Below, piece after piece: positions 1,105 to 26,340 of a stretch of DNA of 32,000 nucleotides. The stretch is taken from the NCBI RefSeq assembly GCF_035285525.1, contig NZ_JAYKGW010000039.1, positions 1-32,000 on the forward strand. Direction: 5' to 3'. Each line of letters begins with the position of its first letter. Position 1 is the first letter of the stretch. The translations under genes were made by a program, and so were the position numbers. The notes below the pieces were generated by a model. That model did no database searches and had not been told where the DNA came from. It worked only from the letters and a program-made list of their open reading frames with translations. The stretch is from Okeania sp. Its GTDB lineage: Bacteria > Cyanobacteriota > Cyanobacteriia > Cyanobacteriales > Microcoleaceae.

Positions 1105-1217
1105 AGCGCGTAGCGCTATAAAACCCACTAAAATTAATCTGAATTTTTCCTGATCGGAGCCAACTACCAACGTCTAATAGAACAGTAAATTAAGTGAGTT
1201 TTAAAACCAAACAAATT

Positions 1218-6281: not shown

Positions 6282-6319
6282 CAGTTATCAGCTATCAGTT
6301 ATCAGTTATCAGTTATCAG
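6282..6319. repeat. STRR-type heptamer run (CAGTTAT/CAGCTAT, about 5 copies)
   Basis: CAGTTATCAGCTATCAGTTATCAGTTATCAGTTATCAG lies directly upstream of the oxygenase start codon. Confidence 0.9.
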
Positions 6320-6876
6320 TTTTTAGTTATCAGCGAAACTTAACTTAGTCAGGACTTAGGCCAAGGTACTAGATATAGAGTTAAAAAACGAGACCCCTCT
6401 AGTTTTGAGCGCTATATATATGGTCTGGTGCGTTAGTCCTGTTAGTCATCTTCCAGATAACTTTAGCTATTAACCAAAAATTTTAATCCTTGGCCTGATC
6501 AGTTTTTAGTTATCAGCGAAACTTAACTTAGTCAGGACTTAGGCAAAGGTACTACATATAGAGTTAAAAAACTATAGCGCTATAGTTTTGAGCGCTATAT
6601 ATATGGTCTGGTGCGTTAGTCCTATTAGTCATCTTCCATATGACTTTAGCTATTAACCAAGAATTTTAATCCTTTATCAGTTATCAGTTTTTAGTTATCA
6701 GCAAAATATTAACTTAGTCAGGACTTAGGGAAAGGTACTAGATATAGATTTAAAAAACTATAGCGCTATAGTTTTGAGCGCTATATATATGGTCTGGTGC
6801 GTTAGTTATCAGCAAAATATTAACTTAGTCATCTGAAAGATGACTTTAGCTATTAGTCAAGGATTTTAATCCTTGG
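6317..6876. repeat. Tandem array of three composite units of about 183-190 bp in the divergent intergenic region
   Basis: The anchor CAGTTTTTAGTTATCAGC(G/A)AAA recurs at 6317, 6500 and 6685. Each unit carries TCAGGACTTAGG, the 20-bp perfect palindrome AAACTATAGCGCTATAGTTT (units 2 and 3), an AGTCATCT...AGATGACT hairpin and AAGGATTTTAATCCTT. A partial fourth copy lies at 6988-7040 and a related copy at 29221-29290. Confidence 0.85.
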
Positions 6877-10700: not shown

Positions 10701-13148
10701 GGATTTGCTAATTCATTAAGTTTTTGGTTTAAGCACATTAGAGAATCTAATTTAATTAACCAAGAAGGATATGGAGCTGCTTTAGAATCAGGAGATTTAG
10801 AATATGTGGGTTATCTTTTACATAACACATCTCTTAATTCATTATTTCAAGGTCAACCTATTCCAGAAATGTTGACAGAGATTTATCGCCATTTACAATT
10901 TGCTCAAAAAACTAAAAATCAACTTTCCATAGATACTTTAATTGGCATTAAAAATCTTCTAGAAAATCTGTCATTAAAATCTGAAAGTGAGGAGACTTAC
11001 TCTCTAGAAGACGAACAAATTAATTTCCATATTAATATAGCTGAAGAAACAGAATATTTAGGTAGTTGCCAAGAACATCAAAACTTTTATTCCTTGTGCA
11101 TATATCTGATTTATAAATCATATCTTTTCTATTTGTATGGAAACTTAGATGTAGCATTAGATAGTATTCTTTCAGCTAAAAAATATATCGGATTTATCAC
11201 AGGTACTTTACCCACTACCGAATTTAACTTTTATTATTCACTAATTTTAATTGCTTTTTACCCAAATGTTTCTGAAATTAAGCAAAAAGAATATTGGCAA
11301 CAAGTAGAAATAAATCAACAACAGATGAAAATTTGGGCAGATAACTGTGCCGACAACTTTGAACATAAATACTTATTAGTAGCAGCAGAAATTGCCAGTA
11401 TTTGCGGAGACAAAATAGTAGCAATAGACTTATATAATCAAGCTATAGAATCTGCCAGTAAAAATGAATTTATTCAATATGAAGCATTAGGTAATGAATT
11501 AGCCGTAAAATATTGGTTAAATCAAAATAAACCTAAATATGCTAGAGTGCATTTACTAGAAGCTTACTATAGTTATCAAAATTGGGGTGCAAATAGAAAA
11601 CTAAAAGACCTAGAAAATCAATATCCAGAACTACAAAATATATTAACAGTTAACAAACCAATGATCTACCCTCACAATACATCAATTTCCGATGATACTA
11701 ACAGTAATAGTCAATCTTTAGATTTAGCCACAGTTATTAAAGCATCTCAAGCAATTTCTAGTGAGATTGTCTTAGATAAATTATTATCTAAATTGATGAA
11801 AATTCTCATCGAAAATGCTGGTGCAGAAAAAGGGGTACTCCTACTATCAACAGAAGGTAAATTAATTAATAAAGCTGAAGCTACTTTAAATTCTCAAGAA
11901 GTGCTAGTGCAAAAGACGGAAATTAATCAATCTGAAGATTTACCACTAACAGTAATTAATTATGTAGAACGAACTCGCCAAGACGTCGTATTAAGTAATG
12001 CTTTTGCCGAAGACCGTTTCACAACCGACCCTTATATTGCCAAAATTAAACTTCAATCTGTTTTATGTACTCCGATTATTAATGGAGGCAAACTTATTGG
12101 AGTTTTATACCTAGAAAATAACCTAACTACAGGTGCATTTACTCCAGAACGTTTGGAGATATTAAGACTTTTATCCTCCCAAGCAGCAGTTTCTTTAGAA
12201 AATGCAATTTTGTATGCTTCAGTCGAACAAAAAATCCAAGACAGAACCCAAGAATTAAACGAAAAAAATATTCGACTGGAACAAACATTACACGAACTGA
12301 AGCGTACTCAATCCCAACTTATTCAAAGTGAAAAAATGTCAAGTTTAGGACAATTAGTTGCCGGGGTAGCTCACGAAATTAATAATCCTGTGGGCTTTAT
12401 TTATGGCAATCTTTCTCCTGCCAATGAATATATTTCTGACTTACTAAACTTGATTGAATTATACCAAGAAAATTATCCCGAACCTGTAGATGAAATTCAA
12501 GATGAAATTGAAGATATAGACTTAGAATTTCTCATCGAAGACTTACAAAAACTTTTAACTTCTATCAAAACCGGAGCCGAAAGAATTAGAGATATTGTGA
12601 TTTCTCTGCGCAACTTCTCCCGGTTAGATGAAGCTGATATGAAACAGATAAATATCCATGAAGGGATTGATAGTACCCTACTAATTTTACATACCCGTAT
12701 TAAAGAAAAATCAGATAGACGGGAAATTGAAATAGTCAAAAATTATGGTAATTTACCACAGGTTGCTTGTTATGCTTCTCAAATGAATCAAGTATTTATG
12801 AACTTGTTGAATAATGCAATTGATGCTTTAGAAAAACTGCGGGATAAAGAAAAAGAAGTAGACAATAAACCAACTATTATAATTTCTACTGAAGTCACAG
12901 ATTTACAAACAGTAAAAATCAAATTTTCTGACAATGGTAGTGGTATTAGTCCTGAAGCATTATCGAAAATATTTGACCCATTTTTTACTACTAAAGCAGT
13001 TGGTGTAGGTACAGGTTTAGGATTATCAATTAGTTATTCAATCGTAGTAGAAAAACATGGAGGTGACTTGAGTTGTGTTTCTGAACTTGGAAAAGGTTCA
13101 GAGTTCATTATTGAAATTCCTGTTAAAGCAAAAAATAATAATGGATAA
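7722..13148 (+). CDS. Multidomain sensor: N-terminal Ser/Thr-kinase-like domain, P-loop (AAA/STAND-type) NTPase, long helical/TPR-like region, GAF domain and C-terminal histidine kinase (HstK-type architecture)
   Basis: The kinase subdomains are VVLKL, IIHKDINPSN (8097-8105 = HKD), IIDFS (8160-8168) and LAYISPEQTGR. The Walker A motif GYSGIGKS is at 8703-8726 and the Walker B-like motif is LVIFLDDLQWAD. The GAF-like region spans about 11715-12215. The H-box is GVAHEINNP (His at 12372-12374), with N-box NLLNNAIDA, G1 DNGSGI and G2 GTGLGL. Confidence 0.92.
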   Translation: MINIPGYQIIAKIYEGPNSIVYRAKQEPNNLPVVLKLSQRNTSGELGNNRYKKEYEILKSLNISGVSKAYGLEKYQNTLVMVTEDIGGTSLKTLIALEKFTILGFLNLAIKVAESLGEIHSSNIIHKDINPSNIIFNQTTGELKIIDFSISSLLTRDRYKLENSNILEGTLAYISPEQTGRMNSAIDYRTDFYSLGATFYELLTQELPFKNTDAMELVHAHIAKQPKPPHEINPEIPKILSNIILKLLAKTPGERYQSAWGLISDLDECLNQLQTTSTIVEFPLGSQDISDKFQIPPKLYGRQSEISALMGAFDRVSNGKKEMMLVTGYSGIGKSVLVQTISQPIIRQGGYFIWGKFDQFQHNIPYSAIVSAFSELVRIILSESEAKLHEWRNKLLAAFGTNGQIIIDVIPELELIVGPQPKIQELGATETQNRFNIIFQKFIELFCQPEHPLVIFLDDLQWADSATLKLIKLMMTDEETKHLFIIGAYRDNEVNYNHHLMMTLDAIWSQSGNINYGQINQINLTPLKFEHITQLIAETLHSDKNSVQELAELVETKTGGNPFFVNEFMKTLYQENLLKFDLERIRWEWDMEKITALDITDNVVELMIGKLQKLPTLTQKVVSLVACVGNQFDLNTLSLIYEKESYGTFQDLLPAIQEGLILPASETEAENVELNLYPFLILNYRFLHDRVQQAAYTFIDESEKQAVHLKIGRLLLENTPPEYRGERVFDLVDHLNLGRTLITDEPEKIELAKLNLEASKKAKDATAYVAAKEYITAGISLLNQNCWDKYYDLTFPVYKEAAVVEYLNSNFSESEALIKIILDHSQSVLEKIEVYNLLVIQYTLRSDYEKAIVAGKKSLGLLEIELPETDLQTAINQEFVKVKENLGDQEIANLINQKENQTSQSKIALGLLTSLMASCYLTNPELWTLMILKGVNISLEYGSIAESCLCYTNYGIILNSYFGDYHSAYQFGLLALKLTDKLGISGLKCKACAGFANSLSFWFKHIRESNLINQEGYGAALESGDLEYVGYLLHNTSLNSLFQGQPIPEMLTEIYRHLQFAQKTKNQLSIDTLIGIKNLLENLSLKSESEETYSLEDEQINFHINIAEETEYLGSCQEHQNFYSLCIYLIYKSYLFYLYGNLDVALDSILSAKKYIGFITGTLPTTEFNFYYSLILIAFYPNVSEIKQKEYWQQVEINQQQMKIWADNCADNFEHKYLLVAAEIASICGDKIVAIDLYNQAIESASKNEFIQYEALGNELAVKYWLNQNKPKYARVHLLEAYYSYQNWGANRKLKDLENQYPELQNILTVNKPMIYPHNTSISDDTNSNSQSLDLATVIKASQAISSEIVLDKLLSKLMKILIENAGAEKGVLLLSTEGKLINKAEATLNSQEVLVQKTEINQSEDLPLTVINYVERTRQDVVLSNAFAEDRFTTDPYIAKIKLQSVLCTPIINGGKLIGVLYLENNLTTGAFTPERLEILRLLSSQAAVSLENAILYASVEQKIQDRTQELNEKNIRLEQTLHELKRTQSQLIQSEKMSSLGQLVAGVAHEINNPVGFIYGNLSPANEYISDLLNLIELYQENYPEPVDEIQDEIEDIDLEFLIEDLQKLLTSIKTGAERIRDIVISLRNFSRLDEADMKQINIHEGIDSTLLILHTRIKEKSDRREIEIVKNYGNLPQVACYASQMNQVFMNLLNNAIDALEKLRDKEKEVDNKPTIIISTEVTDLQTVKIKFSDNGSGISPEALSKIFDPFFTTKAVGVGTGLGLSISYSIVVEKHGGDLSCVSELGKGSEFIIEIPVKAKNNNG

Positions 13149-13191
13149 TTAATCATTAATAATTAATAATTAATCATTAATATAGCCATAA

Positions 13192-13432
13192 GAAATGATT
13201 TGTGAGAAAAAAACTGTAGGGGTTTGGTCTCCAAACCCTAGCGCTAACATATTTAAAGAACCCCCTTGAATCAAATCTTATAACCTATTTAGCATTGCTA
13301 TAATTGATAATTAATATATGAAATGATTTGTGAGAAAAAAAGTGTAGGGGTTTGGTCTCAAAACAAAATTGCTAAAGGGTTTGGAGACCAAACCCCTACG
13401 ATAAAATCTTACAACCTATTTAGCATTGCTAT
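13192..13432. mobile_element. Two tandem copies (13192-13302 and 13320-13432, period 128 bp) of the GTAGGGGTTTGG palindromic MITE family
   Basis: Both copies start GAAATGATTTGTGAGAAAAAAA(C/G)TGTAGGGGTTTGGTCTC and end AATCTTA(T/C)AACCTATTTAGCATTGCTATA. Copy 2 carries the full palindrome GTAGGGGTTTGGTCTC...GGAGACCAAACCCCTAC. Confidence 0.8.
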
Positions 13433-13468
13433 AATTAATAATTAATAATTGATGATTAATCTCTAATA

Positions 13469-13878: not shown

Positions 13879-14763
13879 TTAATTATTCCCTGCTGCTTCA
13901 GGACTAAGAATAATAGTATATTCTCCACCATCGCTCTGCTGAATAACTACCACTGGAGGACTAACATTTGACGGGGCGTTTTTTGGGAGGGAGGGAAATA
14001 TATAATATTGACCATTTGTATCAAATAGCAGTCGCCAGATAACTTGGGGAAAGTCAGGGTCAGTTTTGTTATTGTAATCTCGTTCTAATAACTTTTTATA
14101 TAATTCTATATCTCCGATTATACGAAAATTGCTAATATTAGGATTGTCTGTTAAGTCACGAATTTTTCTGCCTAATGGAAGTTGGTTTTCTGGAGTTATT
14201 AAAGTTACTACTGGTAAAGATGATGTTTCGTTGTAAGCGTCTTGAATAGCATCAAGATTTCCTTGAGTTTTACCAAGGAAAAATAGAGTCATTAATAACC
14301 AGAAAATTATGACTATTTCTTTAATTAAAGCTTGGTCATAATCTTGATAGTTAATTTCTGCAAAATAAAAAAATGATTGAATATTACGGGTGATTTTAGG
14401 GCGTTTAATTTTCCCAATCCATCCCAATAATTTCCAACCCAATTTATTAATAAATTTATCTAGTTTTTGAGTTGAAAATTTAATCAGATTAAAAATAATT
14501 GGAATTATAATTGGAAGCAGGATAAAAGAAGCGATCGCAGTCCAAAGAGTACGGAATAAAGTTGAAAAATCTCCACGGGATAAGTTGCCGAAAAATACTT
14601 GTATTGGTACTATTAAAAATGATTCAAATGGTAAATCTAGGCTGGTTACTTCTAGTTGAAAATAACTGAAATAAGCCCAACGATAAATCCAACCTGTGAA
14701 ATATAAACCTATTCCTAAAAAACTTAATAAACCAGCAGTTTTTCCCAACATATTTTTTAGCAA
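13879..14763 (-). CDS. Hypothetical integral membrane protein (294 aa)
   Basis: The N-terminal half has several hydrophobic segments (LLSFLGIGLYFTGWIY, IASFILLPIIIPIIF, IVIIFWLLMTLFFL) and the C-terminal half is soluble. No family motif is recognised. Confidence 0.7.
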   Translation of the reverse strand: MLKNMLGKTAGLLSFLGIGLYFTGWIYRWAYFSYFQLEVTSLDLPFESFLIVPIQVFFGNLSRGDFSTLFRTLWTAIASFILLPIIIPIIFNLIKFSTQKLDKFINKLGWKLLGWIGKIKRPKITRNIQSFFYFAEINYQDYDQALIKEIVIIFWLLMTLFFLGKTQGNLDAIQDAYNETSSLPVVTLITPENQLPLGRKIRDLTDNPNISNFRIIGDIELYKKLLERDYNNKTDPDFPQVIWRLLFDTNGQYYIFPSLPKNAPSNVSPPVVVIQQSDGGEYTIILSPEAAGNN

Positions 14764-14801
14764 TTAACAATTAAAAATTACACCCTAAAATATTTAATAA
14801 A

Positions 14802-14889
14802 TGTAGGTTGGGTTGAGGGACGAAACCCAACAATAATACAATATGATCAGGCTTGTGTTGGGTTTCACTTCGTTCTACAAGGGCCTACA
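14802..14889. mobile_element. MITE of the TGTAGGTTGGGTT...AACCCAACA family
   Basis: The sequence is TGTAGGTTGGGTTGAGGGACGAAACCCAACA ... TGTGTTGGGTTTCACTTCGTTCTACAAGGGCCTACA. Relatives lie at 22156-22230, about 23263-23300, 26417-26460 and 26670-26712. Confidence 0.75.
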
Positions 14890-14980
14890 TTTTAGCCGTC
14901 TAACACACTCTAAAAATTTTGCACTAATATAGTAATTAAACATATTAGGAGTAATTAATATTTCTATCGGGTACTAATCT

Positions 14981-15565
14981 ATGAAGATAACTAAAATTAC
15001 CATCATTTTCCTCATGGCCTGCCTAACTTTAGGAATCCAAGATAGAAGACAAGTAATTGCTAACTCCAAACCTATAGTAGAAACTAAAGCTATATCAACC
15101 ACAAAACTTATTCCTTTTTCCTTCCCTACTAAAGCAACAGTGGTACTAAAAGATGGTGATAGTAGATCGGGTAAACTAACAGATATTAATTCTCAAAATA
15201 TTACTATTAAAAGAGGTCAGAAGATTGCTCAAGAAGCGATCGCTAATATTGATTGGATTGAATTTAATGGAGACATTTGGTGGCCAGCTTCTAGTAAGTA
15301 TACTAAGTTTCGTGGACTGGAAATAGAGACGAAATATAAACCCCGAAATTTTCAGTTACGAATGGATGGCTTGGAATGGGAAGATGCAGAAAACGGTGTT
15401 GCAAATGTTAAACCTGAAGCTGTGGTTGGAGTAGATGAGAGAGAAGGTTTGCCCCGTAGTATAAATACTTCTAATAAGAGTCGTTATATTGTCAGCAAGG
15501 TAAAGTTTGAACCAGATCAACAAATTTTAATTATTACTGCTACTTCTCAATCAAGAACAGAATAG
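14981..15565 (+). CDS. Hypothetical exported protein or lipoprotein (194 aa)
   Basis: The N-terminal signal-like segment is MKITKITIIFLMACLTLG, with a lipobox-like LMAC. No other motif is recognised. Confidence 0.65.
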   Translation: MKITKITIIFLMACLTLGIQDRRQVIANSKPIVETKAISTTKLIPFSFPTKATVVLKDGDSRSGKLTDINSQNITIKRGQKIAQEAIANIDWIEFNGDIWWPASSKYTKFRGLEIETKYKPRNFQLRMDGLEWEDAENGVANVKPEAVVGVDEREGLPRSINTSNKSRYIVSKVKFEPDQQILIITATSQSRTE

Positions 15566-15923
15566 ATATTTCTAGAAAAGAGGGAACAGGGAACACTTAA
15601 CCCACTCCTAACTCCTCCCAGGAGGCAGGGACTATTTATTGTCCCTAGAGAAAAAAAGAAGGAGGAGAAGGAAGACAAGGAAGACAAGGAAGAGGGGGGA
15701 GTGTGGAATTGAAAAAATATAGGGTTGAAATATTCTCTGACGACAAAGAATTAGCCCTGCTCCCAGTAGGGGAATAATTGATAATTTATAAATAAGAATT
15801 GATTGGATTTTTTATTTTTGGAGATATCTAATAGATATTTGCAGAAATTAATAGTTAATTTTTCACAATTTATCTACTATAATTGCTAGAATTTTAATAT
15901 TCATAATCTTTGGGATAATAACT

Positions 15924-16151
15924 ATGCTATCTGTCGAAGAACTAATTAAAGAAGCCTTATCTTTACCGAATATCCAGAGGACACTTTTAGTAGAAAAGTT
16001 GATTGAAAGTCTGGAGTTTGATATAGATGAAAAAATTCAAACTGCTTGGATAAATGAAGCTAAAAAACGTCGCGATGAAATTAAGAATGGTGATATTTTA
16101 CCCATCCCTGGAGAAGAAGCTTTAGCTAAGGTAAGGCGGATTTTAGAATAA
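15924..16151 (+). CDS. Addiction-module antitoxin component (TIGR02574-like small helical protein)
   Basis: The 75-aa protein MLSVEELIKEALSLP...WINEAKKRRDEIKNGDILPIPGEEALAKV has the family's typical pattern. Its stop overlaps the toxin start by 1 nt (TAATG). Confidence 0.8.
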   Translation: MLSVEELIKEALSLPNIQRTLLVEKLIESLEFDIDEKIQTAWINEAKKRRDEIKNGDILPIPGEEALAKVRRILE

Positions 16152-16444
16152 TGAAATATATTTTTCATCCTGCTGCTTTAACAGAATATTCTGAAGCTGT
16201 TGAATTTTATGCAGAGCGTCGAGTAGAAATTGCACAAAAATTTATTAATGCTGTGGAAAATACTATTTTCAAAATAGTTGAATATCCCACTCGTTGGCCT
16301 GCGATTGATCAAGATATTCGTCGATGTCTAATCCAGAAATTTCCTTATGGTATTATATACACAATTGAAGATAATTTTATTCTGATTTTAGCAGTTATGC
16401 ACTGCAGTCGAAAACCTGGATATTGGAAAGATAGGGTTAAGTAA
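16151..16444 (+). CDS. Type II toxin, RelE/ParE family
   Basis: The 97-aa protein reads YIFHPAALTEYSEAVEFY...FPYGIIYTIEDNFILILAVMHCSRKPGYWKDR, which is typical of ParE-like plasmid-stabilisation toxins. It is translationally coupled to the upstream antitoxin. Confidence 0.85.
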   Translation: MKYIFHPAALTEYSEAVEFYAERRVEIAQKFINAVENTIFKIVEYPTRWPAIDQDIRRCLIQKFPYGIIYTIEDNFILILAVMHCSRKPGYWKDRVK

Positions 16445-16567
16445 AAACTACTAAATTTTTGATATTTTTTTACCCTACTTTACTACGATAATTAAAGATT
16501 GTTGGGATTTGAAATATATTCTATTCCCGACTTTCTATTACCTTAAAAAAAAATACTGAATATCGCT

Positions 16568-16813
16568 ATGAGCATTATTATTTCTGATGAAATGTTGTGT
16601 ACCACTAGAATGACCGAATCTGAGATGAAATTGGAAATAGCTGTTATGCTTTTCCAAAAAGAAAAACTAACTTTAGGTCAAGCTAGTCGGTTTGCTGACA
16701 TGAATAGAATTGCTTTTCAGCATTTATTAGCTAGTCGGCAAATTCCAGTTCATTATGACGTAAAAGACTTGGAAAAAGATATTAAAAACTTACAGGAGAT
16801 GGGAATAATATGA
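16568..16813 (+). CDS. UPF0175-family antitoxin (the usual partner of DUF3368/PIN toxins)
   Basis: The 81-aa protein reads ...ESEMKLEIAVMLFQKEKLTLGQASRFADMNRIAFQHLLASRQIPVHYDVKDLEKDIKNL. Its stop overlaps the next ATG in ATGA (16810-16813). Confidence 0.8.
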   Translation: MSIIISDEMLCTTRMTESEMKLEIAVMLFQKEKLTLGQASRFADMNRIAFQHLLASRQIPVHYDVKDLEKDIKNLQEMGII

Positions 16814-16878
16814 TTGTTGTTAGCGATACTTCAGCTATTAATAACTTACCGTCAGTAGGGTGCGTTAGCGAAGCGTAA
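16810..16878 (+). pseudogene. Remnant (first 13 codons or so) of a DUF3368/PIN-domain toxin gene, truncated by a MITE
   Basis: MIVVSDTSAINNL is a typical PIN/DUF3368 N-terminus. From codon 15 the reading runs into the MITE terminal repeat (PSVGCVSEA*). Confidence 0.7.
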
Positions 16879-17046
16879 CGCACCGAAATATTTATCAGCA
16901 AAATTGAATATTTAGCAATACAAATGATTGCTAGTAAACACGTCGGTTTAATATGGTTCATTCGGATGTCGCCGATAGGAAAGCATAACGCATCGGAACA
17001 TTACGGTTTAGGCGGTGCGTTACGCTATCGCTAACGCACCCTACTG
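16853..17046. mobile_element. 194-bp MITE with terminal inverted repeats of about 32 bp, each itself a hairpin
   Basis: The left end is CAGTAGGGTGCGTTAGCGAAGCGTAACGCACC and the right end is GGTGCGTTACGCTATCGCTAACGCACCCTACTG, which reverse-complements to CAGTAGGGTGCGTTAGCGATAGCGTAACGCACC. Confidence 0.85.
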
Positions 17047-17051
17047 GACTA

Positions 17052-17237
17052 TTAATTTTCTTTTCTTCGTTTCAAAGGAGTTTTAATGAATTTGATTTTC
17101 CCTTTCCATTCTTTCTCGAACTGCTTTTGTCTCTCCAGACAATCAGCTAATATTAATTCCGGATCGTAGTTAAAAGCTTTGGCGTGTTCTTCTCGAATTT
17201 GGTAAATTTCTTCTAAAATTTCATCAGGTAACATCAT
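17052..17237 (-). CDS. Small hypothetical protein (61 aa)
   Basis: The protein MMLPDEILEEIYQIREEHAKAFNYDPELILADCLERQKQFEKEWKGKIKFIKTPLKRRKEN is charged and helical. I cannot name a family. Confidence 0.5.
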   Translation of the reverse strand: MMLPDEILEEIYQIREEHAKAFNYDPELILADCLERQKQFEKEWKGKIKFIKTPLKRRKEN

Positions 17238-17267
17238 AGTTTTTTCTTGCTAATTTATATGGTGTAA

Positions 17268-17340
17268 AATCCCCCTAAATCCCCCTTTGAAAGGGGGACT
17301 TTGAATACTCCCCCCTTACAAAGGGGGGCAGGGGGGGATA
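17268..17340. repeat. CCCCCTTTGAAAGGGGG hairpin repeat: 1 unit plus a terminal variant
   Basis: The sequence is AATCCCCCTAAATCCCCCTTTGAAAGGGGGACTTTGAATACTCCCCCCTTACAAAGGGGGGCAGGGGGGGATA. Confidence 0.85.
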
Positions 17341-17463
17341 CTTGCTCTGGCGGTTAAATAGCTAATAACATTAGAAGTAGACAATTAGAATTAAAAATTC
17401 AAAGTTAAAAGAAATAATATTTAGTGTTAGTATACTATTATAATCACTTATTACAAGGAAATA

Positions 17464-17880
17464 ATGCCAGCCAAAGATACTTATCATCAAGCTGTCAAAA
17501 ATGCTTTAATTAAAGATGGTTGGAAAATTTTAGCAGACCCTTATGTAATCAAATACAAAGATGCTGAATTATTTGCCGATTTAGCAGTAGAAAAACCTAT
17601 TGTTGCTCAAAGAAAAGGAGAAAAAATTGTTGTTGAAATTAAAAGCTTTTTAAGTCCCTCACCTATGAGAGATTTTGAAATGGCTTTAGGACAATATATT
17701 TTATATCGAAATTTAATCAATCTTACTCAACCAGAGTATCAAATTTACCTAGCAATTAAAGACAGTGTTTACGAAAACTTTTTTCAACGAGATTCAATTC
17801 AAGATATTACTAAAATAAATCAATTACTTTTGATTATTGTTGATATGGAACAGGAGGAAATTATCAAATGGATAAATTAG
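17464..17880 (+). CDS. xisH: XisH family protein (PD-(D/E)xK-like motif), copy 1
   Basis: The signature is MPAKDTYHQAVKNALIKDGW...FADLAVEK...KIVVEIKSF...ALGQYILYR. It overlaps xisI by 13 nt (ATGGATAAATTAG). Confidence 0.88.
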   Translation: MPAKDTYHQAVKNALIKDGWKILADPYVIKYKDAELFADLAVEKPIVAQRKGEKIVVEIKSFLSPSPMRDFEMALGQYILYRNLINLTQPEYQIYLAIKDSVYENFFQRDSIQDITKINQLLLIIVDMEQEEIIKWIN

Positions 17881-18209
17881 AAAAATATCGTAATTATATT
17901 AAAAAGATATTAACAGAATATCACGAATGGGTTTTAGGGGCAGCAAATTTAGACCGAGAAAGTTGTCTGGTTTTTGACGAGATACACGATCAATATTTTT
18001 GGCTGTTTATGGGTTGGGAAGGGAAGAAAAAAATCAGAAATATTCAAGTTCATATTCGGATTAAAAATGAGAAGATTTATATTGAGGAAGATTGGACGGA
18101 GTCAGGAATGGCTAATGAGTTATTAAGGGAAAATGTATCGAAAGAAGATATTGTTTTAGCTTTCCACGATCCTGAATCTCGTAAGTTAACTGATTTTGCT
18201 GTTGTTTGA
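17868..18209 (+). CDS. xisI: XisI family protein, copy 1
   Basis: The signature is MDKLEKYRNYIKKIL...IRIKNEKIYIEEDWTE.GMANELL...KEDIVLAFHDPESRKLTDFAVV. Confidence 0.88.
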   Translation: MDKLEKYRNYIKKILTEYHEWVLGAANLDRESCLVFDEIHDQYFWLFMGWEGKKKIRNIQVHIRIKNEKIYIEEDWTESGMANELLRENVSKEDIVLAFHDPESRKLTDFAVV

Positions 18210-18210
18210 T

Positions 18211-18326
18211 AATCCCCCTAAATCCCCCTTTGAAAGGGGGACTTTGAAGAACTTCCCCTAAATCCCCCTTTGAAAGGGGGACTTTGAAGAACTCCCCCAT
18301 TTGAAAGGGGGGCAACGGGGGATATA
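18211..18326. repeat. CCCCCTTTGAAAGGGGG hairpin repeat: 2 units plus a terminal variant
   Basis: AATCCCCCTAAATCCCCCTTTGAAAGGGGGACTTTGAAGAACTTCCCCTAAATCCCCCTTTGAAAGGGGGACTTTGAAGAACTCCCCCATTTGAAAGGGGGGCAACGGGGGATATA lies directly after the xisI-1 stop. Confidence 0.85.
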
Positions 18327-18382
18327 AAACTGTACCTCACAAGTATGGGGATTGCTGTAATTTATTTGAGGAAAATAAGGCT

Positions 18383-18475
18383 ATGAAACGAATTATTATT
18401 ACCTCTCTAATCGGAATCACAATCCTGACTACAACTCCCCTAATACTGCTACTATTACCAAAACGGATATACTAA
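18383..18475 (+). pseudogene. Duplicated 5' relic (about 26 homologous codons) of the TPR-CHAT gene
   Basis: MKRIIITSLIGITILTTTPLILLLLP is nearly identical to the start of the 19494 gene (MKRIIITSLIGITTLNITPLILPLLP). Homology is then lost and a stop follows (KRIY*). Confidence 0.75.
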
Positions 18476-18492
18476 GTTATTACAAGGAAATA

Positions 18493-18909
18493 ATGCCAGC
18501 CAAAGATACTTATCATCAAGCTGTAAAAAATGCTTTAACTAAAGATGGTTGGAAAATTACTTTTGACCCTTATCCTATTAAATATAAAGAAGTTAAATTA
18601 TTTGCCGATTTAGCTGGTGAAAAAACAATTTCTGCAACACGAGAAGGGCGTAAAATTGTGATTGAAATTAAAAGTTTCCTGAGTCGTTCTCCTATGCGTG
18701 AATTTGAAACAGCATTAGGGCAATATTTAATTTATCAAACATTTCTTTCTATCACTTATCCTAGTTCTAAAGTTTATTTGGCAGTTAATCACAAAATTTA
18801 TGAAAAGTTTTTTGTACAAATGGCAATTGAATTAATTATAGAAAAATATAAAGTTTCAGTATTAGTCGTTGACATTCAAAAAGAGGAAATAATTAAATGG
18901 ATAAGCTAA
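18493..18909 (+). CDS. xisH: XisH family protein, copy 2
   Basis: The signature is MPAKDTYHQAVKNALTKDGW...FADLAGEK...KIVIEIKSF...ALGQYLIYQ, with the same 13-nt overlap with xisI. Confidence 0.88.
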   Translation: MPAKDTYHQAVKNALTKDGWKITFDPYPIKYKEVKLFADLAGEKTISATREGRKIVIEIKSFLSRSPMREFETALGQYLIYQTFLSITYPSSKVYLAVNHKIYEKFFVQMAIELIIEKYKVSVLVVDIQKEEIIKWIS

Positions 18910-19238
18910 TTAATTATCAAAATATCATCAAACAAATTCTCACTAATTATCAAAGAATATCGGCACAAGTTCCCGATCCTGATATAGATGAAGTATTAAT
19001 ATTTGATGATGAAAGAAGTCAATATCTTTGGTTTAATATTGGCTGGAAAAATGATAGACGAGTTCAAGCTATTTCTGTTTATATTCGGATTAAAAATGAA
19101 AAGATTTATATTGAGGAAGATTGGACGGAAGAAGGAATGGCTAATGAGTTATTAAGGCAAAATGTATCGAAAGAAGATATTGTTTTAGCTTTCCACGATC
19201 CTGAATCTCGTAAGTTAACTGATTTTGCTGTTGTTTAA
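18897..19238 (+). CDS. xisI: XisI family protein, copy 2
   Basis: The protein starts MDKLINYQNIIKQIL. Its last 50 codons or so are almost identical at the DNA level to copy 1 (19084-19238 versus 18055-18209). Confidence 0.88.
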   Translation: MDKLINYQNIIKQILTNYQRISAQVPDPDIDEVLIFDDERSQYLWFNIGWKNDRRVQAISVYIRIKNEKIYIEEDWTEEGMANELLRQNVSKEDIVLAFHDPESRKLTDFAVV

Positions 19239-19241
19239 ATT

Positions 19242-19434
19242 GAGAATCCCCCTAAATCCCCCTTTGAAAGGGGGACTTTGAGAATCCCCCTAAATCCCCC
19301 TTTGAAAGGGGGACTTTGAGAATCCCCCTAAATCCCCCTTTGAAAGGGGGACTTTGAGAATCCCCCTAAATCCCCCTTTGAAAGGGGGACTTTGAAGAAC
19401 TCCCCCCTTTGAAAGGTGGGCAAGGGGGGATATA
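19242..19434. repeat. Tandem 38-bp hairpin repeat x4 plus a terminal variant
   Basis: The unit GAGAATCCCCCTAAATCCCCCTTTGAAAGGGGGACTTT starts at 19242, 19280, 19318 and 19356. The variant GAAGAACTCCCCCCTTTGAAAGGTGGGCAAGGGGGGATATA starts at 19394. Confidence 0.95.
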
Positions 19435-19493
19435 ATACTATTTCTCACAAGTATGGGAATTACTATAATTATTTATTTGAGGAAAATAAGACT

Positions 19494-22090
19494 ATGAAAC
19501 GAATTATTATTACCTCTCTAATCGGAATCACAACTCTGAATATAACTCCCCTAATACTGCCACTATTACCACAAGAGAGTTACGCCCAAACTTCTGACTC
19601 TGAGGCAGAAAAGTTAGAGCAGTTACTAAAAACAGCATCGCAGCAAAGGAAGGGAATACCAATATCAGGAGTCTATAGAAGCATTTCAACAAGCTTTAGT
19701 TATTGCCAGAAAAATTAAAGACCGAAAAAAAGAGGCAGATGCTAACCTTGGTCTTGGTGTCAACTACGATCATATAGGTCAACCACAAGAAGCATTAAAC
19801 TTTTATAACAAAGCTTTGATAATTTTTCGGGAAGTAGGCGATCTCTCAGGTATTTCCACCACTCTTAATAATATTGGTATAGTTTACCGTCAAACAGGTG
19901 AACCCCAAAAAGCATTAGAATACTACGAGGAAGACTTACTTATCAGTCAGAAGATTGGCGATCGCTCCGAAGAAGCGGTTACGCTCAATAACATTGGTGT
20001 AGTTTACCGCCAAATAAGTGAACCTCAAAAAGCATTAGAATACTACCAGCAAGCTTTAGCTATCTGGCAGGAAGTAGGCGATCGCTCTAGAGAAGCTGCT
20101 ACTCTTAATAATATTGGTGCAGTTTACCACACTATAGGTCAACTCCAAAAGGCATTAGAATACTATGAGCAAGACTTACTAATAAATCGGGAAATAGGCG
20201 ATCGCTCAGGTATTTCTACTGCTCTTAATAATATTGGTCTAGTTTACCATCGTATAGGTGAACCTCAAAAAGCGTTAGAATATTACGAGCAAGACTTACT
20301 AATCAGTCGGGAAATAGGCGATCGCTTTGGAGAAGCTATTACTCTCAATAATATTGGTGGAGTCTACGAAAATATAGGTGAACCGCAAAAGGCATTAGAA
20401 TACTAGCAGCAAGCTTTACTTATCAGACAAGAAGTAGGCGATCGCTCTGGGGAAGCTACTACTCTCAATAATATTGGTTTAGTTTACCATGTTATAGGTG
20501 AACCGCAAAAGGCATTAGAATACTACCAGCAAGCTTTACATATCAGGCAAGAAGTAGGCGATATCTCTGGAGAAGCTATTACTTTCAATAATATTGCTTA
20601 TCTTCACCGAGATAACAACGAACCAGAGAAAGCTATACACCACTGGGAAAAGTCAATACAAATTACCCTAAAAATGCGTGCGGGGTTAAAAAAAGAAGAC
20701 CGCAAATATTTTTTAGGAGATAATGACTATAAAGCGAATGCTCTTGTCGATTTTCTCATTGAGCAAAATAAACCTGATGCTGCCTGGCAATGGTATAACC
20801 GAGTTACTACTTTCGACCTCGCTGACTACACTCGCCTTATTGATGCCAAAGTCAAAAACCCAAAAGCTCAAAAACTGATTAACCAATGGCAACAAAACAA
20901 TCAACAATTACAATTTTTCTACAGCAAAATAGAAGATAAATGGACTCCCCAACTTTCCCAACAAATTAACCAGTTACAAGCAGAAACCAGCCTACTCGCA
21001 GAAAACATTAGCAAAGAATGCCCAGAAGTTGCCGAGCTTTTTGAGTTCAAGCCAGAAGACATCGACAAACTTAAAGCCAATATTCCACCAGATACTGTTG
21101 TTATTCAACCTGCTCTTTTAACTGGTAATACAGAATTTCCCGATAGCATCGCCATATTTTTTGTCACCAGAGATAAACCTGTCTTAGTTAAAAAATTTCC
21201 TATAGATAAAAAAGAATTTAATGACATCCTCACAGAATATCGACAGCAACTAGAAAATCCCAACGCCGACGACTACGACATTAACCAAGAAAAACTCTAT
21301 GACTATCTGATTCGCCCAATGGAAGCAGAAATAGCTGCTTACCCCCCCCAAACAACTTGCCATCATCGCTACCGGAAAATTGCGTTATATTCCTTTTGAA
21401 ACCCTATTTGATAATCAAACAGACCAATATTTACTGGAAAAATATCCCATCCACTACCTCACTCGCATCTCTGGCAACAAAAAACCGGAATCAAAAAACA
21501 CTAAACGCCAGAAAGTATTAGCATTTGGAAATCCGACTCCCACAAAATTAAATCTCCCTGGTGCAGAAGAGGAGGCTAAAGCGATCGCCGAAATGTTATC
21601 AAGCAAACATTACATTCGAGAAGAGGCAACCCTCCCTCGTTTTAAAAACGAATCCCTCGGTTTTTCCTTAGTGCATCTCGCTACCCACGGTTGCTTTCAA
21701 AAAGGTGGTTGCCCTGATGTTGGTTTAGAGGAAGGTACTATTTTGTTTGCCAACGATAAAACTTTTAATATCAGAGATGCTGCACTTTTAGGATTAGAAA
21801 ATACAGATTTAATCGTTTTGAGTGCTTGCCAAACTGCCATGGAAGCTAACTCTAACGGTGAAGAAATAGCCGGAGTTGCCTATTTATTTGAGCGTGCCGG
21901 TGCGGATGCTGTCATTGCCAGTTTATGGAATGCCGAGGATGAGACAACCAAGGATATTATGGTGAAATTTTATCAGTATTTGCAACAAGGAATGACCAAG
22001 GTGGAGGCATTACGTCAGGCGAAGTTAAGTTATGCTAGGGAGTATGTCAGTCCGTTTTATTGGTCCCCTTTGATTTTGATAGGAAATTGA
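19494..22090 (+). pseudogene. TPR-repeat / CHAT-domain (caspase-like) protease gene with two frameshifts and one in-frame TAG
   Basis: The gene has a signal-like N-terminus and at least 7 repeats with an exact 120-bp period (GCATTAGAATACTA at 19911, 20031 ... 20511). The CHAT domain retains the catalytic His (LATHG, 21686-21688) and Cys (LSACQT, 21827-21829). The lesions are a frame change within 19630-19660, TAG at 20404-20406 where paralogous repeats have TAC, and a frame change at the C8 run 21342-21349. Confidence 0.8.
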
Positions 22091-22103
22091 AGGAAGAAGG
22101 AGT

Positions 22104-22133
22104 TGTAGGGACGTTGCATGCAACGTCCCTACA
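22104..22133. terminator. 30-bp perfect palindrome after the CHAT gene stop (possible terminator or dispersed-repeat hairpin)
   Basis: TGTAGGGACGTTGCATGCAACGTCCCTACA lies 14 nt after the TGA at 22088-22090. No T run follows. Confidence 0.45.
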
Positions 22134-22155
22134 GAGTCAGGAGGAAGTTAAGCTT

Positions 22156-22230
22156 TGTAGGTTGGGTTGACGTAGGAAACCCAACAATGATTGGTATATG
22201 TTGGGTTCGCTGTCGCTTAACCCAACCTAC
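22156..22230. mobile_element. MITE of the GTAGGTTGGGTT family
   Basis: The sequence is TGTAGGTTGGGTTGACGTAGGAAACCCAACA...TGTTGGGTTCGCTGTCGCTTAACCCAACCTAC. Confidence 0.8.
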
Positions 22231-22275
22231 TACTAAAATTGTGGGTATTTGAGCAAGCAACCACCGAAGACCTCT

Positions 22276-22346
22276 CCCCCAACCCCTCTCCTGCAAGGAG
22301 AGGGGAGTTCTCTCCCCCTTCCCTTGCAGGGAAGGGGGTTGGGGGG
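22276..22346. repeat. Nested GC-rich palindromes (CCCCTCTCCTGCAAGGAGAGGGG and CCCCCTTCCCTTGCAGGGAAGGGGG)
   Basis: The two hairpins are at 22283-22305 and 22314-22338, flanked by CCCCCAACC / GGTTGGGGGG. They lie just 3' of the Uma2 gene stop on the minus strand. Confidence 0.8.
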
Positions 22347-22374: not shown

Positions 22375-23220
22375 TTAATCTGGCTCAATACCCAAATCCC
22401 GCAACTTAGCCTCAAGCTCTGCCAACTTCTGTAAAGCGGACTCCTTTTCTTGCTTTTCCTGTTCCGCACGTTGTAAAGCGGACTCTTTTTCCTGCTTTTC
22501 CTGTTCCGCACGTTGTAAAGCAGACTCCTTTTCTTGCTTTTCTTGTTCCGCACGCTCGGCACCAGTAGGAATCACATTTCCCTCAGCATCGCACCAACGT
22601 AACCAAACATCTTCCTTGCCTTCAAATTTTCCTGACCATAAAGTTAACCCCAACTGAACTTTTTCTAACCAAGTTTCCGTCATTTTCTGATAACCGCTTG
22701 CTCTCAACTCATAAACTTCTAGCAGAGAGTCTCCTAACATTTTCAGGGGATCGAAAACCACATAATACCAGGCTCCCATCCGGGCATAATTTTTAAGTTT
22801 ACTACCCAACTCGTTCCCCACTTTGTTAGAAACTATTTCCACGACTACATCTGGAGCTTTACCAAATTTCCAAGTATAATAGCTGCGGTCTTTTTTATGC
22901 TCCCAGTCATCGGGTATTGTCACATCTAGACTCAGAAAAACATCAGGCACTAAAGCTGGTTTTTCTGTAGAGTAAAATACTCCCACATTCGCTCCTGCCA
23001 AAAACTGACTGTTGCCATCTACACCAGACCATGAATCATATAAACAGTTGGTTAGGAGACGTTGTTGTTTTTCTGATTGAAAATTATCCACGGGAGTATC
23101 ATCCTCTATGGTTAAATCGCTAATATCGGGTTCAGGTGGAGTTTCATATTCTATTACATAATAACTAATACCAGGAGTAGTTACTTCTTCTGTTTCATCT
23201 GTTTTGATTTTAGATATCAT
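22375..23220 (-). CDS. Uma2-family (DUF820) endonuclease with a C-terminal repeat tail
   Basis: The typical N-terminal motif is DDTPVDNFQSEKQQRLL, followed by the core ...VPDVFL...PDVVVEIVS.... The C-terminus carries RAEQEKQEKESALQ x3. Confidence 0.85.
   Translation of the reverse strand: MISKIKTDETEEVTTPGISYYVIEYETPPEPDISDLTIEDDTPVDNFQSEKQQRLLTNCLYDSWSGVDGNSQFLAGANVGVFYSTEKPALVPDVFLSLDVTIPDDWEHKKDRSYYTWKFGKAPDVVVEIVSNKVGNELGSKLKNYARMGAWYYVVFDPLKMLGDSLLEVYELRASGYQKMTETWLEKVQLGLTLWSGKFEGKEDVWLRWCDAEGNVIPTGAERAEQEKQEKESALQRAEQEKQEKESALQRAEQEKQEKESALQKLAELEAKLRDLGIEPD
22429..22554. repeat. Intragenic tandem repeat, 3 x 42 bp, encoding RAEQEKQEKESALQ
   Basis: Units start at 22429, 22471 and 22513 (TTGTAAAGCGGACTC(C/T)TTTTC(T/C)TGCTTTTC(C/T)TGTTCCGCACG on the plus strand). 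Confidence 0.9.
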
Positions 23221-23391: not shown

Positions 23392-23727
23392 TCAACCAAC
23401 AGCATATTCAGTAAATTTCCTCATAAATGGCGTATGAAAAGCAATAACAATATCCTTTTTATCTACTCCATTCGCCACTAACTCAGCAGCAATATCCCTT
23501 TCGGTTGCATTCCATTGAATCCAAACTTTTTCATCTTTAATATCAACATGAATGATACAACTATGTATCCATGTTTGCTCATCCCAACCCAGATAAACTA
23601 TTAGATAACGATTTCTTTCAACATCGAAAATAGTTGCAACTTCTATTTCTCCATGAGCAGGTTTATCTTGACTGTAATCTAATAACCATTCTTGAATACA
23701 ATGACGATATTTTTCTAATTTTTCCAT
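23392..23727 (-). CDS. xisI: XisI family protein, copy 3
   Basis: The signature is MEKLEKYRHCIQEWL...IHVDIKDEKVWIQWNATERDIAAELVANGVDKKDIVIAFHTPFMRKFTEYAVG. Confidence 0.88.
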   Translation of the reverse strand: MEKLEKYRHCIQEWLLDYSQDKPAHGEIEVATIFDVERNRYLIVYLGWDEQTWIHSCIIHVDIKDEKVWIQWNATERDIAAELVANGVDKKDIVIAFHTPFMRKFTEYAVG

Positions 23728-23777
23728 TGGACAATTTCCTCTTTTTCAACTTCATAAATAATTAATTTAATATCATT

Positions 23778-24134
23778 TTATTCAATCATTATTCGTGGTA
23801 ATTCTAATTGAAAAAAAGTGTTATATGTTACTGTTGGTATAGCAAGATAAAGAGTTCTTTCTGGAGCCTTTTTTGTCAGAGCTTTATGGTAAATCATATA
23901 TTGTCCCAAGGCTGTATGAAACTCATATCTTGCTGATGATTGAGGCAAAAAACTTTTAATTTCCACCGCAATTTTTCGTTGACTATTTTCGGCAGCAATT
24001 AATTTTTGAGAACCTAAATCTATTGACATATTTACACCACCAAATCTAATAGAATATGGATCGTGAGTAATGCGCCATCCTTCTTTGATTAGGGCATTTT
24101 TAACAACAGTATGAAAAGCATCTCTAGCAGACAT
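23778..24134 (-). CDS. xisH: XisH family protein, copy 3, shortened by an in-frame TAA (the full-length equivalent would be 23715..24134)
   Basis: The signature is MSARDAFHTVVKNALIKEGW...IDLGSQK...KIAVEIKSF. After TAA (23778-23780) the same frame reads NDIKLIIYEVEKEEIVQWKN*. That matches the XisH C-terminus and restores the 13-nt overlap with xisI. Confidence 0.8.
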   Translation of the reverse strand: MSARDAFHTVVKNALIKEGWRITHDPYSIRFGGVNMSIDLGSQKLIAAENSQRKIAVEIKSFLPQSSARYEFHTALGQYMIYHKALTKKAPERTLYLAIPTVTYNTFFQLELPRIMIE

Positions 24135-26300: not shown

Positions 26301-26340
26301 TAATCCCCCCAAACCCCCCTTTGAAAGGGGGGCTTCAGAA
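26301..26340. repeat. Solitary variant of the CCCCCTTTGAAAGGGGG hairpin repeat
   Basis: The sequence is TAATCCCCCCAAACCCCCCTTTGAAAGGGGGGCTTCAGAA. Confidence 0.8.

Follow-up and report, generated by a model that had tools for sequence, protein, structure and literature searches.

Tandem xisHI cassettes with near-identical ends and divergent cores in a relative of Okeania

XisH and XisI are known solely as accessory factors of one developmental excision in Anabaena. XisH has been assigned to the PD-(D/E)XK nuclease superfamily (PMC3424549), and Hwang et al. (2014), as quoted in PMC4853749, proposed that the pair consists of an endonuclease and a directionality factor. Many copies of xisHI are carried by non-heterocystous cyanobacteria and giant sulfur bacteria, and in many taxa the pair is found without the recombinase gene xisF, its function there being called unknown (PMC2674450, PMC4853749). 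We describe here two xisHI pairs, cassettes A and B, that lie in tandem in a stretch of cyanobacterial DNA of 32,000 nt (the window, on whose numbering the cassette coordinates are given). Their ends are almost identical and their cores are deeply divergent, a pattern that recurs in related loci. No description of such a constant-end/variable-core structure, or of concerted evolution of xisHI, was found in the searchable literature; the genes of the window thus appear to be known families in a previously undescribed arrangement and mode of evolution.

The two cassettes are arranged head to tail on the forward strand at an offset of 1029 nt, and their coding parts align without gaps. Cassette A comprises a 5' constant block (17449-17529) holding the ribosome-binding site and xisH codons 1-22, a type A variable core (17530-18052) that encodes XisH residues 23-138 and XisI residues 1-62, and a 3' constant block (18053-18209) that corresponds to XisI residues 62-113 (xisI nt 186-342). 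The genes themselves are xisH-A (17464-17880, 138 amino acids) and xisI-A (17868-18209, 113 amino acids). In cassette B, the 5' constant block spans 18478-18558, the type B core 18559-19081 and the 3' constant block 19082-19238, with xisH-B (138 amino acids) at 18493-18909 and xisI-B (113 amino acids) at 18897-19238. The two 5' blocks differ by 2 mismatches and the two 3' blocks by 6. In A and B, as well as in a third, more distant pair of the window (copy 3), xisI overlaps its own xisH by 13 nt, and the length is exactly 746 nt in all 46 cassettes that were extracted. A first-pass annotation, made from the letters of the DNA alone, had already recognized two head-to-tail xisHI units of about 1.03 kb, and all four genes are where it put them. 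The residues that it quoted as examples agree with the translations. Its estimate of the conserved ends was right for the last 155 bp of xisI and too long for xisH, where the conserved stretch covers 66 bp and not 75.

Over 17449-18209, A and B are 96.7% identical outside the interval 17530-18052 and 60.5% identical inside it. The maximum chi-square of this contrast is 105.8, compared with a null distribution (300 permutations) whose mean is 10 and whose maximum is 23.4. The near-identical ends and diverged core that the annotation had described are therefore real, and the gap-free alignment, with sharp breakpoints at 17530 (the first divergent site) and 18052, leaves no sign of the uniform identity by which that description could have been overturned. 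The longest perfect runs between A and B measure 48 nt in the 5' block and 78 nt in the 3' block. Synonymous (dS) and nonsynonymous (dN) divergence follow the same partition: xisH nt 1-66 have a dS of 0.085 and a dN of 0.019, while nt 67-414 have values of 1.12 and 0.34; in xisI, dS is saturated and dN is 0.63 over nt 1-186, and the two fall to 0.069 and 0.025 over nt 187-339. Within each type dN/dS is 0.13-0.26, indicating that both cassettes are maintained genes under purifying selection and that the types are discrete and old. Diversifying selection, which the annotation had mentioned for systems with the same pattern, is not demonstrated. No other parts of the two proteins are as conserved across all types as XisH residues 1-22 and XisI residues 62-113, and the conservation of the ends is partly a matter of constraint at the protein level.

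Each core has a close counterpart in another genome. The A core is 95% identical in nucleotides to that of Okeania sp. SIO2B3. For the B core the figures are 97% with metagenome contig L001 and 89-91% with Okeania B cores, and A cores always share 58-64% identity with B cores. The proteins tell a similar tale. XisH-A is 93% identical to a protein of Okeania sp. SIO2B3 and has relatives at 80-88% in Microcystis, Planktothrix, Kamptonema and Nostocales. XisH-B is 95% identical to metagenome protein P0175 (contigs L001 and L002) and 83-85% identical to proteins of Okeania (85% in SIO2C2), Dapis, Anabaena and Aphanizomenon. XisI-B is 92% identical to the product of an orphan xisI-B gene of Okeania SIO2B3.

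Three genomes that carry both types, namely the window, Okeania SIO2B3 and Roseofilum (contig L021), allowed quartets of xisI sequences to be compared by counting the parsimony-informative sites that group by type or by genome. In xisI nt 1-185 the ratio of by-type to by-genome sites is 76:0 for the window and Okeania SIO2B3, 41:2 for the window and Roseofilum, and 40:1 for Okeania and Roseofilum. In nt 186-342 the ratio of by-genome to by-type sites is 3:0 (plus one cross site), 24:0 and 20:0 for the same three comparisons. Since the 3' sites of xisI group by genome and the 5' sites by type, the ends evolve in concert. A scan of the whole cassette, window against Roseofilum, gives by-genome to by-type counts of 19:0 in the upstream 40 nt, 6:1 in xisH nt 1-66, 11:73 in the core and 24:0 in the last 156 nt. 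When the variable sites are displayed, the breakpoints are identical in every A/B comparison, and substitutions specific to the window are found in both A and B. Thus paralogous ends within a genome are more alike than ends of the same type in different genomes, with discordance across the breakpoint, as concerted evolution predicts. Convergence in codon usage was considered as a cause of the by-genome ends and rejected, because by-genome sites number 2-3 per 100 nt in the core and 15 per 100 nt at the 3' end, where by-type sites number zero. These site patterns show that the cores descend from lineages which split long before the host clade diversified, and that homologous recombination, in the form of gene conversion or unequal crossing-over, has exchanged the ends repeatedly and in recent times. 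In consequence, the ends go with the genome and the cores with the type.

The arrangement is not confined to the window. The comparison set comprises about 160 related loci. Cassettes of other taxa show between-type identities that equal the within-type identities at the ends (72-86%), and only in the core does the between-type value drop, to 42-70%. Among 118 distinct XisI proteins of 113 amino acids there are at least five types of N-terminal half, with mutual identities of 36-52%, and the C-terminal halves of all of them form one class at 79-89%. Similarly, 88 intact pairs sort into 14 clusters of XisH cores and 11 clusters of XisI N-terminal halves, with a single class of XisH N-termini and XisI C-terminal halves and no reticulate pairing. 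Mixed arrays are common: 24 different-type pairs were found in 16 loci, in Geminocystis, Dolichospermum, Sphaerospermopsis, Spirulina, Aerosakkonema, Roseofilum and metagenomes. Median identity at the 3' end of xisI is 89.5% for different-type pairs of the same locus (23 pairs, that of the window being excluded) versus 79.1% for different loci. Constant ends flanking a variable core are a general property of this xisHI subfamily and not a peculiarity of the duplication in the window, and the pattern holds in other cyanobacterial orders too. Some arrays are more elaborate. Contig L141 bears, in this order, a broken xisH with its xisI, a full pair of another type and an orphan xisI. Stacks of orphan xisI genes, 360-550 nt apart and with no xisH between them, are found in L141 (1765-3892), L118 (at 955 and 1314) and L081 (at 10640 and 11121).

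Membership of the four proteins in their families is not in doubt. Against PF08814 (cut-off 25 bits), XisH-A scores 190 bits (E = 2.5e-56) and XisH-B 184.5 bits (E = 1.2e-54), profile positions 1-134 of 134 being covered; against PF08869 (cut-off 25 bits), XisI-A scores 138.5 bits (E = 1.4e-40) and XisI-B 142.7 bits (E = 7e-42), both over the full length. XisH matches the solved structures PDB 2inb and 2okf (E = 1e-34), and XisI matches the solved monomer structures PDB 2nwv (E = 3e-38 for XisI-A), 2nvm, 3d7q and 2nlv. In XisH, D39, E58-x-K60, Q77, Y78 and Y81 (the last three forming a QY..Y motif) are conserved in at least 90% of 82 distinct homologues and are present in A, B and copy 3. This D...E-x-K signature fits a nuclease, for which catalysis may be predicted. 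XisH is a complete open reading frame (ORF) of 138 codons with its own ribosome-binding site and start codon and no upstream fusion.

The distribution of lone genes bears on how the two proteins might work together. In the loci that were fetched, 89 pairs are intact; 92 intact xisI genes stand alone, with space enough for a partner, and not one intact xisH does. For members that were not used for ascertainment the corresponding numbers are 13, 17 and 0. As most loci were found through XisI, this census is circumstantial. None of the 45 intact A or B pairs has mismatched types, and for roughly half of the intact xisI genes of type A or B the xisH is disrupted, partial or missing. The 92 lone xisI genes, set against zero lone xisH, suggest a nuclease with an obligatory partner. 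XisH would be a PD-(D/E)XK nuclease whose activity either needs cognate XisI or is restrained by it, and the variable core would carry the pair-specific part.

The likeness between units A and B runs on 3' of the xisI stop, through a hairpin array and into the 5' untranslated region and about 28 codons of a TPR-CHAT gene. The hairpin array behind xisI-A (18211-18322; fold z = -5.4) has 2.2 copies of a 40-nt unit and a closing arm, and that behind xisI-B (19240-19432) has 4.3 copies of a 38-nt unit and a closing arm. As the first-pass annotation had proposed, the start of the TPR-CHAT gene was copied along with the cassette: 18357-18467 is about 90-91% identical to 19468-19577. This upstream copy contains an ORF of 30 amino acids (18383-18475) and is a remnant, not a gene; it is 92.6% identical to the start of the CHAT gene of Okeania SIO2B3. 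Its homology stops at about 18462-18467, and near 18462-18477 it meets the promoter region of cassette B in a unique junction. The TPR-CHAT gene proper (19494-22090, forward strand) has TPR and CHAT Pfam matches and an N-terminal signal-like peptide, and is a pseudogene here, because tblastn with the intact 1180-amino-acid orthologue of Okeania SIO2B3 needs frames 3, 1 and 2 and meets internal stops. Its 120-nt TPR repeat units are also fewer than those of that orthologue. On the other side of the array, the flank U (17341-17448), which holds the presumed promoter region of xisH, precedes cassette A. A scan for promoters and terminators gave promoter signals not above those of shuffled sequences and found no terminators, a search for plasmid sequences gave no match, and Rfam models on 16800-19800 gave sub-threshold hairpin matches only, which we read as chance.

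The wider context places the locus next to Okeania. Positions 13891-16848 and the TPR-CHAT gene are syntenic with Okeania contigs at 77-94% nucleotide identity, and for this reason we regard the host as a relative of Okeania (Oscillatoriales), and not of the Nostocales to which the annotation had turned for related loci. Okeania is non-heterocystous. Relative to CHAT, the cassettes are on the upstream side in the window (cassettes, CHAT) and on the downstream side in four Okeania species (CHAT, cassettes); no unique path between the two orders could be derived. Homology between the contexts begins 9-19 nt 5' of the xisH ATG and reaches as far as the stop codon of xisI. A complete B cassette is found in Okeania SIO2F4. 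In SIO3B5 and SIO2C9, xisH-B is truncated and xisI-B intact, and in SIO2B3 a complete A cassette precedes a remnant of xisH-B (its last ~40 nt) and an undamaged xisI-B (contig L005, 9178-10342). The flank 5' of A in SIO2B3 is the same as the flank 5' of B in SIO2F4. The corresponding stretch, with xisH-B truncated or deleted beside an intact xisI-B, lies near 9640-10342 in the Okeania contigs L007 and L008, and a duplication of the final ~38 nt of xisI follows a palindromic-element insertion in L007. A cassette that moves by itself as a site-specific mobile element was also considered; this idea is unsupported, no terminal repeats or target duplications having been found.

In contig L001, the flank that lies upstream of A in the window (about 94% identical) stands directly 5' of a B cassette (96.4% identical), which is followed by two hairpin copies and the TPR gene. 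L001 thus represents a single-cassette state of the same locus. In the region of the hairpins and the CHAT start, each window copy has derived changes of its own, and the CHAT fragment and the CHAT gene of the window have two derived sites in common when compared with L001 and Okeania; these two sites favour a duplication, or a homogenisation, within the lineage of the window. The comparison of synteny with sister genomes that the annotation had recommended yields a single cassette in L001 and, in Okeania SIO2B3, an A cassette upstream of a B remnant. Most likely, the lineage of the window would have started from a single cassette in the order U, xisHI, hairpins, CHAT. An illegitimate or unequal crossover could then have joined about codon 28 of CHAT in one copy of the locus to the cassette promoter of another copy. 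The crossover partners may already have carried different alleles, one A and the other B; or both may have been B, the first core of the duplication being replaced by A later. Protein constraint would keep the ends sufficiently alike to serve as built-in homology arms (the perfect runs of 48 and 78 nt), and through such arms cassettes could be exchanged, gathered into arrays or lost by deletion.

Taken as a whole, this explanation of a two-type array with old cores, recombining ends, an origin by crossover and a nuclease with a cognate partner has, in our estimation, a probability of roughly 0.7. Several points weigh against it. The tandem junction (18455-18480) rests on one assembly. Most members of the comparison set were found by XisI queries and its metagenome contigs are partly redundant, and the Mann-Whitney p of 6e-11 for same-locus versus between-loci 3' identity is computed on pairs that are not independent. 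The order of events may have been a heteroallelic crossover, a duplication with core replacement, or an ancestral A-B array with losses, and the A cassette directly upstream of a B remnant in Okeania SIO2B3 fits the last of these. As to function, the asymmetry of lone genes, the gene overlap and the strict matching of types fit a toxin-antidote-like nuclease and partner in a circumstantial way, and linkage alone could account for core types that constantly match. The four XisH and XisI proteins have no match at E <= 0.01 in PADLOC-DB 2.0 and none in NCBIfam. Finally, the sole genetics of XisH and XisI, as recounted in PMC4874684 and PMC11249958, shows them to be needed for XisF-mediated excision of the fdxN element in Anabaena PCC 7120 (Ramaswamy et al. 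1997).

A plain tandem duplication that drifted, its uneven identity being shaped by selection without any recombination, could invoke the fact that XisH 1-22 and XisI 62-113 are the most conserved segments of the family, and the CHAT fragment does show that a duplication took place. This account is hardly credible and is already contradicted: dS is 0.07-0.085 in the ends and saturated in the core, each core has a 95-97% counterpart in another genome, end sites group by genome (24:0 and 20:0) and none by type, and the breakpoints are sharp. Low dS in the ends, saturation in the core, near-identical foreign cores and the switch of sites at the breakpoints all bear out the annotation's preference for recombination between alleles, or cassette exchange, over a drifted duplication. 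An error of assembly, in which an A locus and a B locus from two strains or two places were joined in tandem through their common ends, is a more serious worry and still a very improbable one. The ends and hairpin arrays are repeats of a kind that confuses assemblers, and independent Logan contigs (SRR19514071) that are 100% identical to the flanks end in repeats, at 16882 and 23020, before reaching the array. Exact look-ups found neither the XisH-A, XisH-B, XisI-A and XisI-B proteins nor the 30-amino-acid ORF of the CHAT fragment on record, so there is no independent assembly of the array. Yet the junction between about codon 28 of CHAT and the promoter of cassette B is novel and would be absent from a simple chimera of U-A-CHAT and U-B-CHAT, and the downstream copies differ by about 9% and in the number of their repeats. 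Moreover, A stands directly upstream of a B remnant, independently, in the metagenome-assembled genome of Okeania SIO2B3, and mixed-type arrays are found at no fewer than 16 other loci.

It may also be asked whether the array is a recent gain at all. An A-B array could be ancestral in an Okeania-like clade, gene conversion keeping its ends alike, with A lost from L001 and SIO2F4 by crossover between the 5' constant blocks. That A lies immediately upstream of B both in the window and in Okeania SIO2B3 speaks for such a history, as does the similar divergence of the cores between the window and Okeania (95% identity for A, 89-94% for B); a deletion between direct repeats of at least 48 nt would be easy and would yield exactly U-B. 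However, the window and Okeania arrays are not in the same context, since they lie on opposite sides of CHAT. The CHAT fragment between A and B in any case needs an event in the lineage of the window, and its derived sites match the CHAT gene of the window and not L001. We therefore hold an ancestral array to be unlikely, though it deserves attention. Less probable still is that xisHI genes are accessory factors of XisF-type large serine recombinases, XisH being nuclease-like and XisI directionality-factor-like, with cores that match different recombinases or attachment sites and not each other. Excision of the fdxN element is, in the portion of the literature covered by the sources cited above, the only role shown by experiment. 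On the other hand, no resolvase or recombinase domain is encoded by ORFs of at least 90 amino acids in the 32-kb window, no recombinase was called next to the Okeania cassettes, the closest relatives belong to a non-heterocystous genus, and the occurrence of xisHI without xisF in many taxa (PMC4853749, PMC2674450) is against it; the absence of lone xisH beside 92 lone xisI would be left unexplained. The flanks of the window are syntenic chromosomal genes shared with Okeania, and the module does not lie inside a gene-interrupting element.

A wider and quite tentative proposal, which we would not expect to hold in full, goes beyond the crossover-built array with its nuclease and cognate partner. 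xisHI may be a multi-allelic cassette system with pair-specific cores (at least 5-14 types in this small sample), ends that act as homology arms, through which cores could move between paralogues, chromosome copies and strains, and orphan xisI genes that act as 'immunity' genes, serving as a toxin-antidote, self/non-self or defence system rather than as an accessory to recombination. If true, such a system would include the xisHI copies, hundreds in number and so far unexplained, of filamentous and colonial cyanobacteria. Apart from this proposal, the observed pattern of correctly paired core types, recombining ends, mixed arrays and xisI genes that survive alone predicts type-specific recognition between XisH and XisI, and an XisH activity that is harmful or tightly controlled. 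The locus is also a clean natural case of gene conversion limited to the ends of a two-gene module.

The remainder of the window contains further elements of interest. The third xisHI pair, on the reverse strand, belongs to another subfamily: xisH-3 (23715-24134) matches PF08814 over profile positions 1-116 of 134 and has an in-frame stop at codon 119 (...RIMIE-stop-NDIKL...QWKN-stop), and xisI-3 (23392-23727) is intact (PF08869, E = 1.5e-42). This pair does without the constant ends that A and B have in common, nucleotide identity at its 5' end being just ~66%. The sequence of xisH-3 is also present in an independent Logan contig, L164. A nested G/C-rich hairpin element (ATCCCCC...GGGGGAT), similar to a miniature inverted-repeat transposable element (MITE), precedes the array at 17269-17340 (forward strand; fold z = -4.1); Okeania homology stops at 17269 and the element is absent there. 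The hairpin pattern CCCCCTTTGAAAGGGGG has 22 matches on both strands, versus 0 expected. Members of this hairpin family (ATCCCCC TAA ATCCCCCTTTGAAAGGGGGACTTTGA ... GGGGGAT), with a variable number of 38-40-nt internal units, lie at 17269-17340, 18211-18322, 19245-19432 and 26301-26335. They are absent from the homologous Okeania positions, and related elements occur elsewhere in Okeania contigs. The family looks like a small mobile palindromic (MITE-like) element. Further palindromic repeats, of the GGGACGTTGCATGCAACGTCCC, GTAGGTTGGGTT...AACCCAACCTAC and CTCTCCCC/GGGGAGAG types, lie within 22100-22340 and recur in Okeania contigs, at times beside xisI.

Upstream of the array, an Unstab_antitox/ParE toxin pair (15924-16444) is followed by an orphan UPF0175 gene (16568-16813), whose usual DUF3368 partner is missing from the window and present in Okeania SIO2B3. 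Downstream, a Uma2-family putative endonuclease (22375-23220, reverse strand) has three 42-nt tandem repeats (22430-22554), whose translation, ALQRAEQEKQEKES, lies at the C-terminus. More distant genes encode a multidomain signalling protein of 1808 amino acids (7722-13148) with Ser/Thr kinase, AAA_16, GAF, HisKA and HATPase domains, and an RTX-repeat beta-helix protein (1194-3599). Non-coding tandem repeats occupy 6306-6806 (183-nt unit) and 13188-13447 (128-nt unit). In the comparison material, positions 1-55 of the ENA metagenome contig L002 include Nextera adaptor sequence (GTCTCGTGGGCTCGGAGATGTGTATAAGAGACAG), a contamination of the contig end and not biology.

Among known systems, the fdxN XisH and XisI of Anabaena (Nostoc) PCC 7120 belong to the same families over their full length and have the same tight overlapping operon and the same D...ExK residues. 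Unlike that system, the window has neither XisF nor an interrupting element, several types are stacked, and the host clade is non-heterocystous. xisHI is also reminiscent of type II toxin-antitoxin modules: its two genes are small and translationally coupled, paralogues are numerous in each genome, other toxin-antitoxin genes (ParE/antitoxin, UPF0175) lie nearby, and it is the nuclease gene that decays or disappears, its partner remaining intact; a nuclease gene by itself is never found. xisHI has no PADLOC match, and the nuclease gene precedes that of its partner, an order seen less often in such modules.

The cdiA-CT/cdiI genes of contact-dependent growth inhibition (CDI) and the Rhs systems offer another parallel, since there too the variable block consists of the C-terminal part of an effector and the adjacent partner, next to a constant homology arm, and orphan partners occur. 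In contrast, XisH is free-standing and has no delivery or secretion domain, and the constant C-terminal half of XisI provides a second homology arm; a role of xisHI between cells would be pure speculation. The hsdS genes of type I restriction-modification systems resemble the cassettes in their conserved-variable-conserved layout, with recombination in the conserved parts swapping specificity segments between nearby copies. They represent other protein families, however, and xisHI has no invertase or inverted-repeat shufflon and a variable block that spans two genes. Segmental concerted evolution by gene conversion, known for instance from duplicated tuf genes and from rRNA operons, likewise makes paralogous tracts of one genome resemble each other more than their orthologues elsewhere, with sharp tract ends. 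The difference is that conversion in xisHI is limited to the two ends of the module, the interior consisting of discrete, deeply divergent types.

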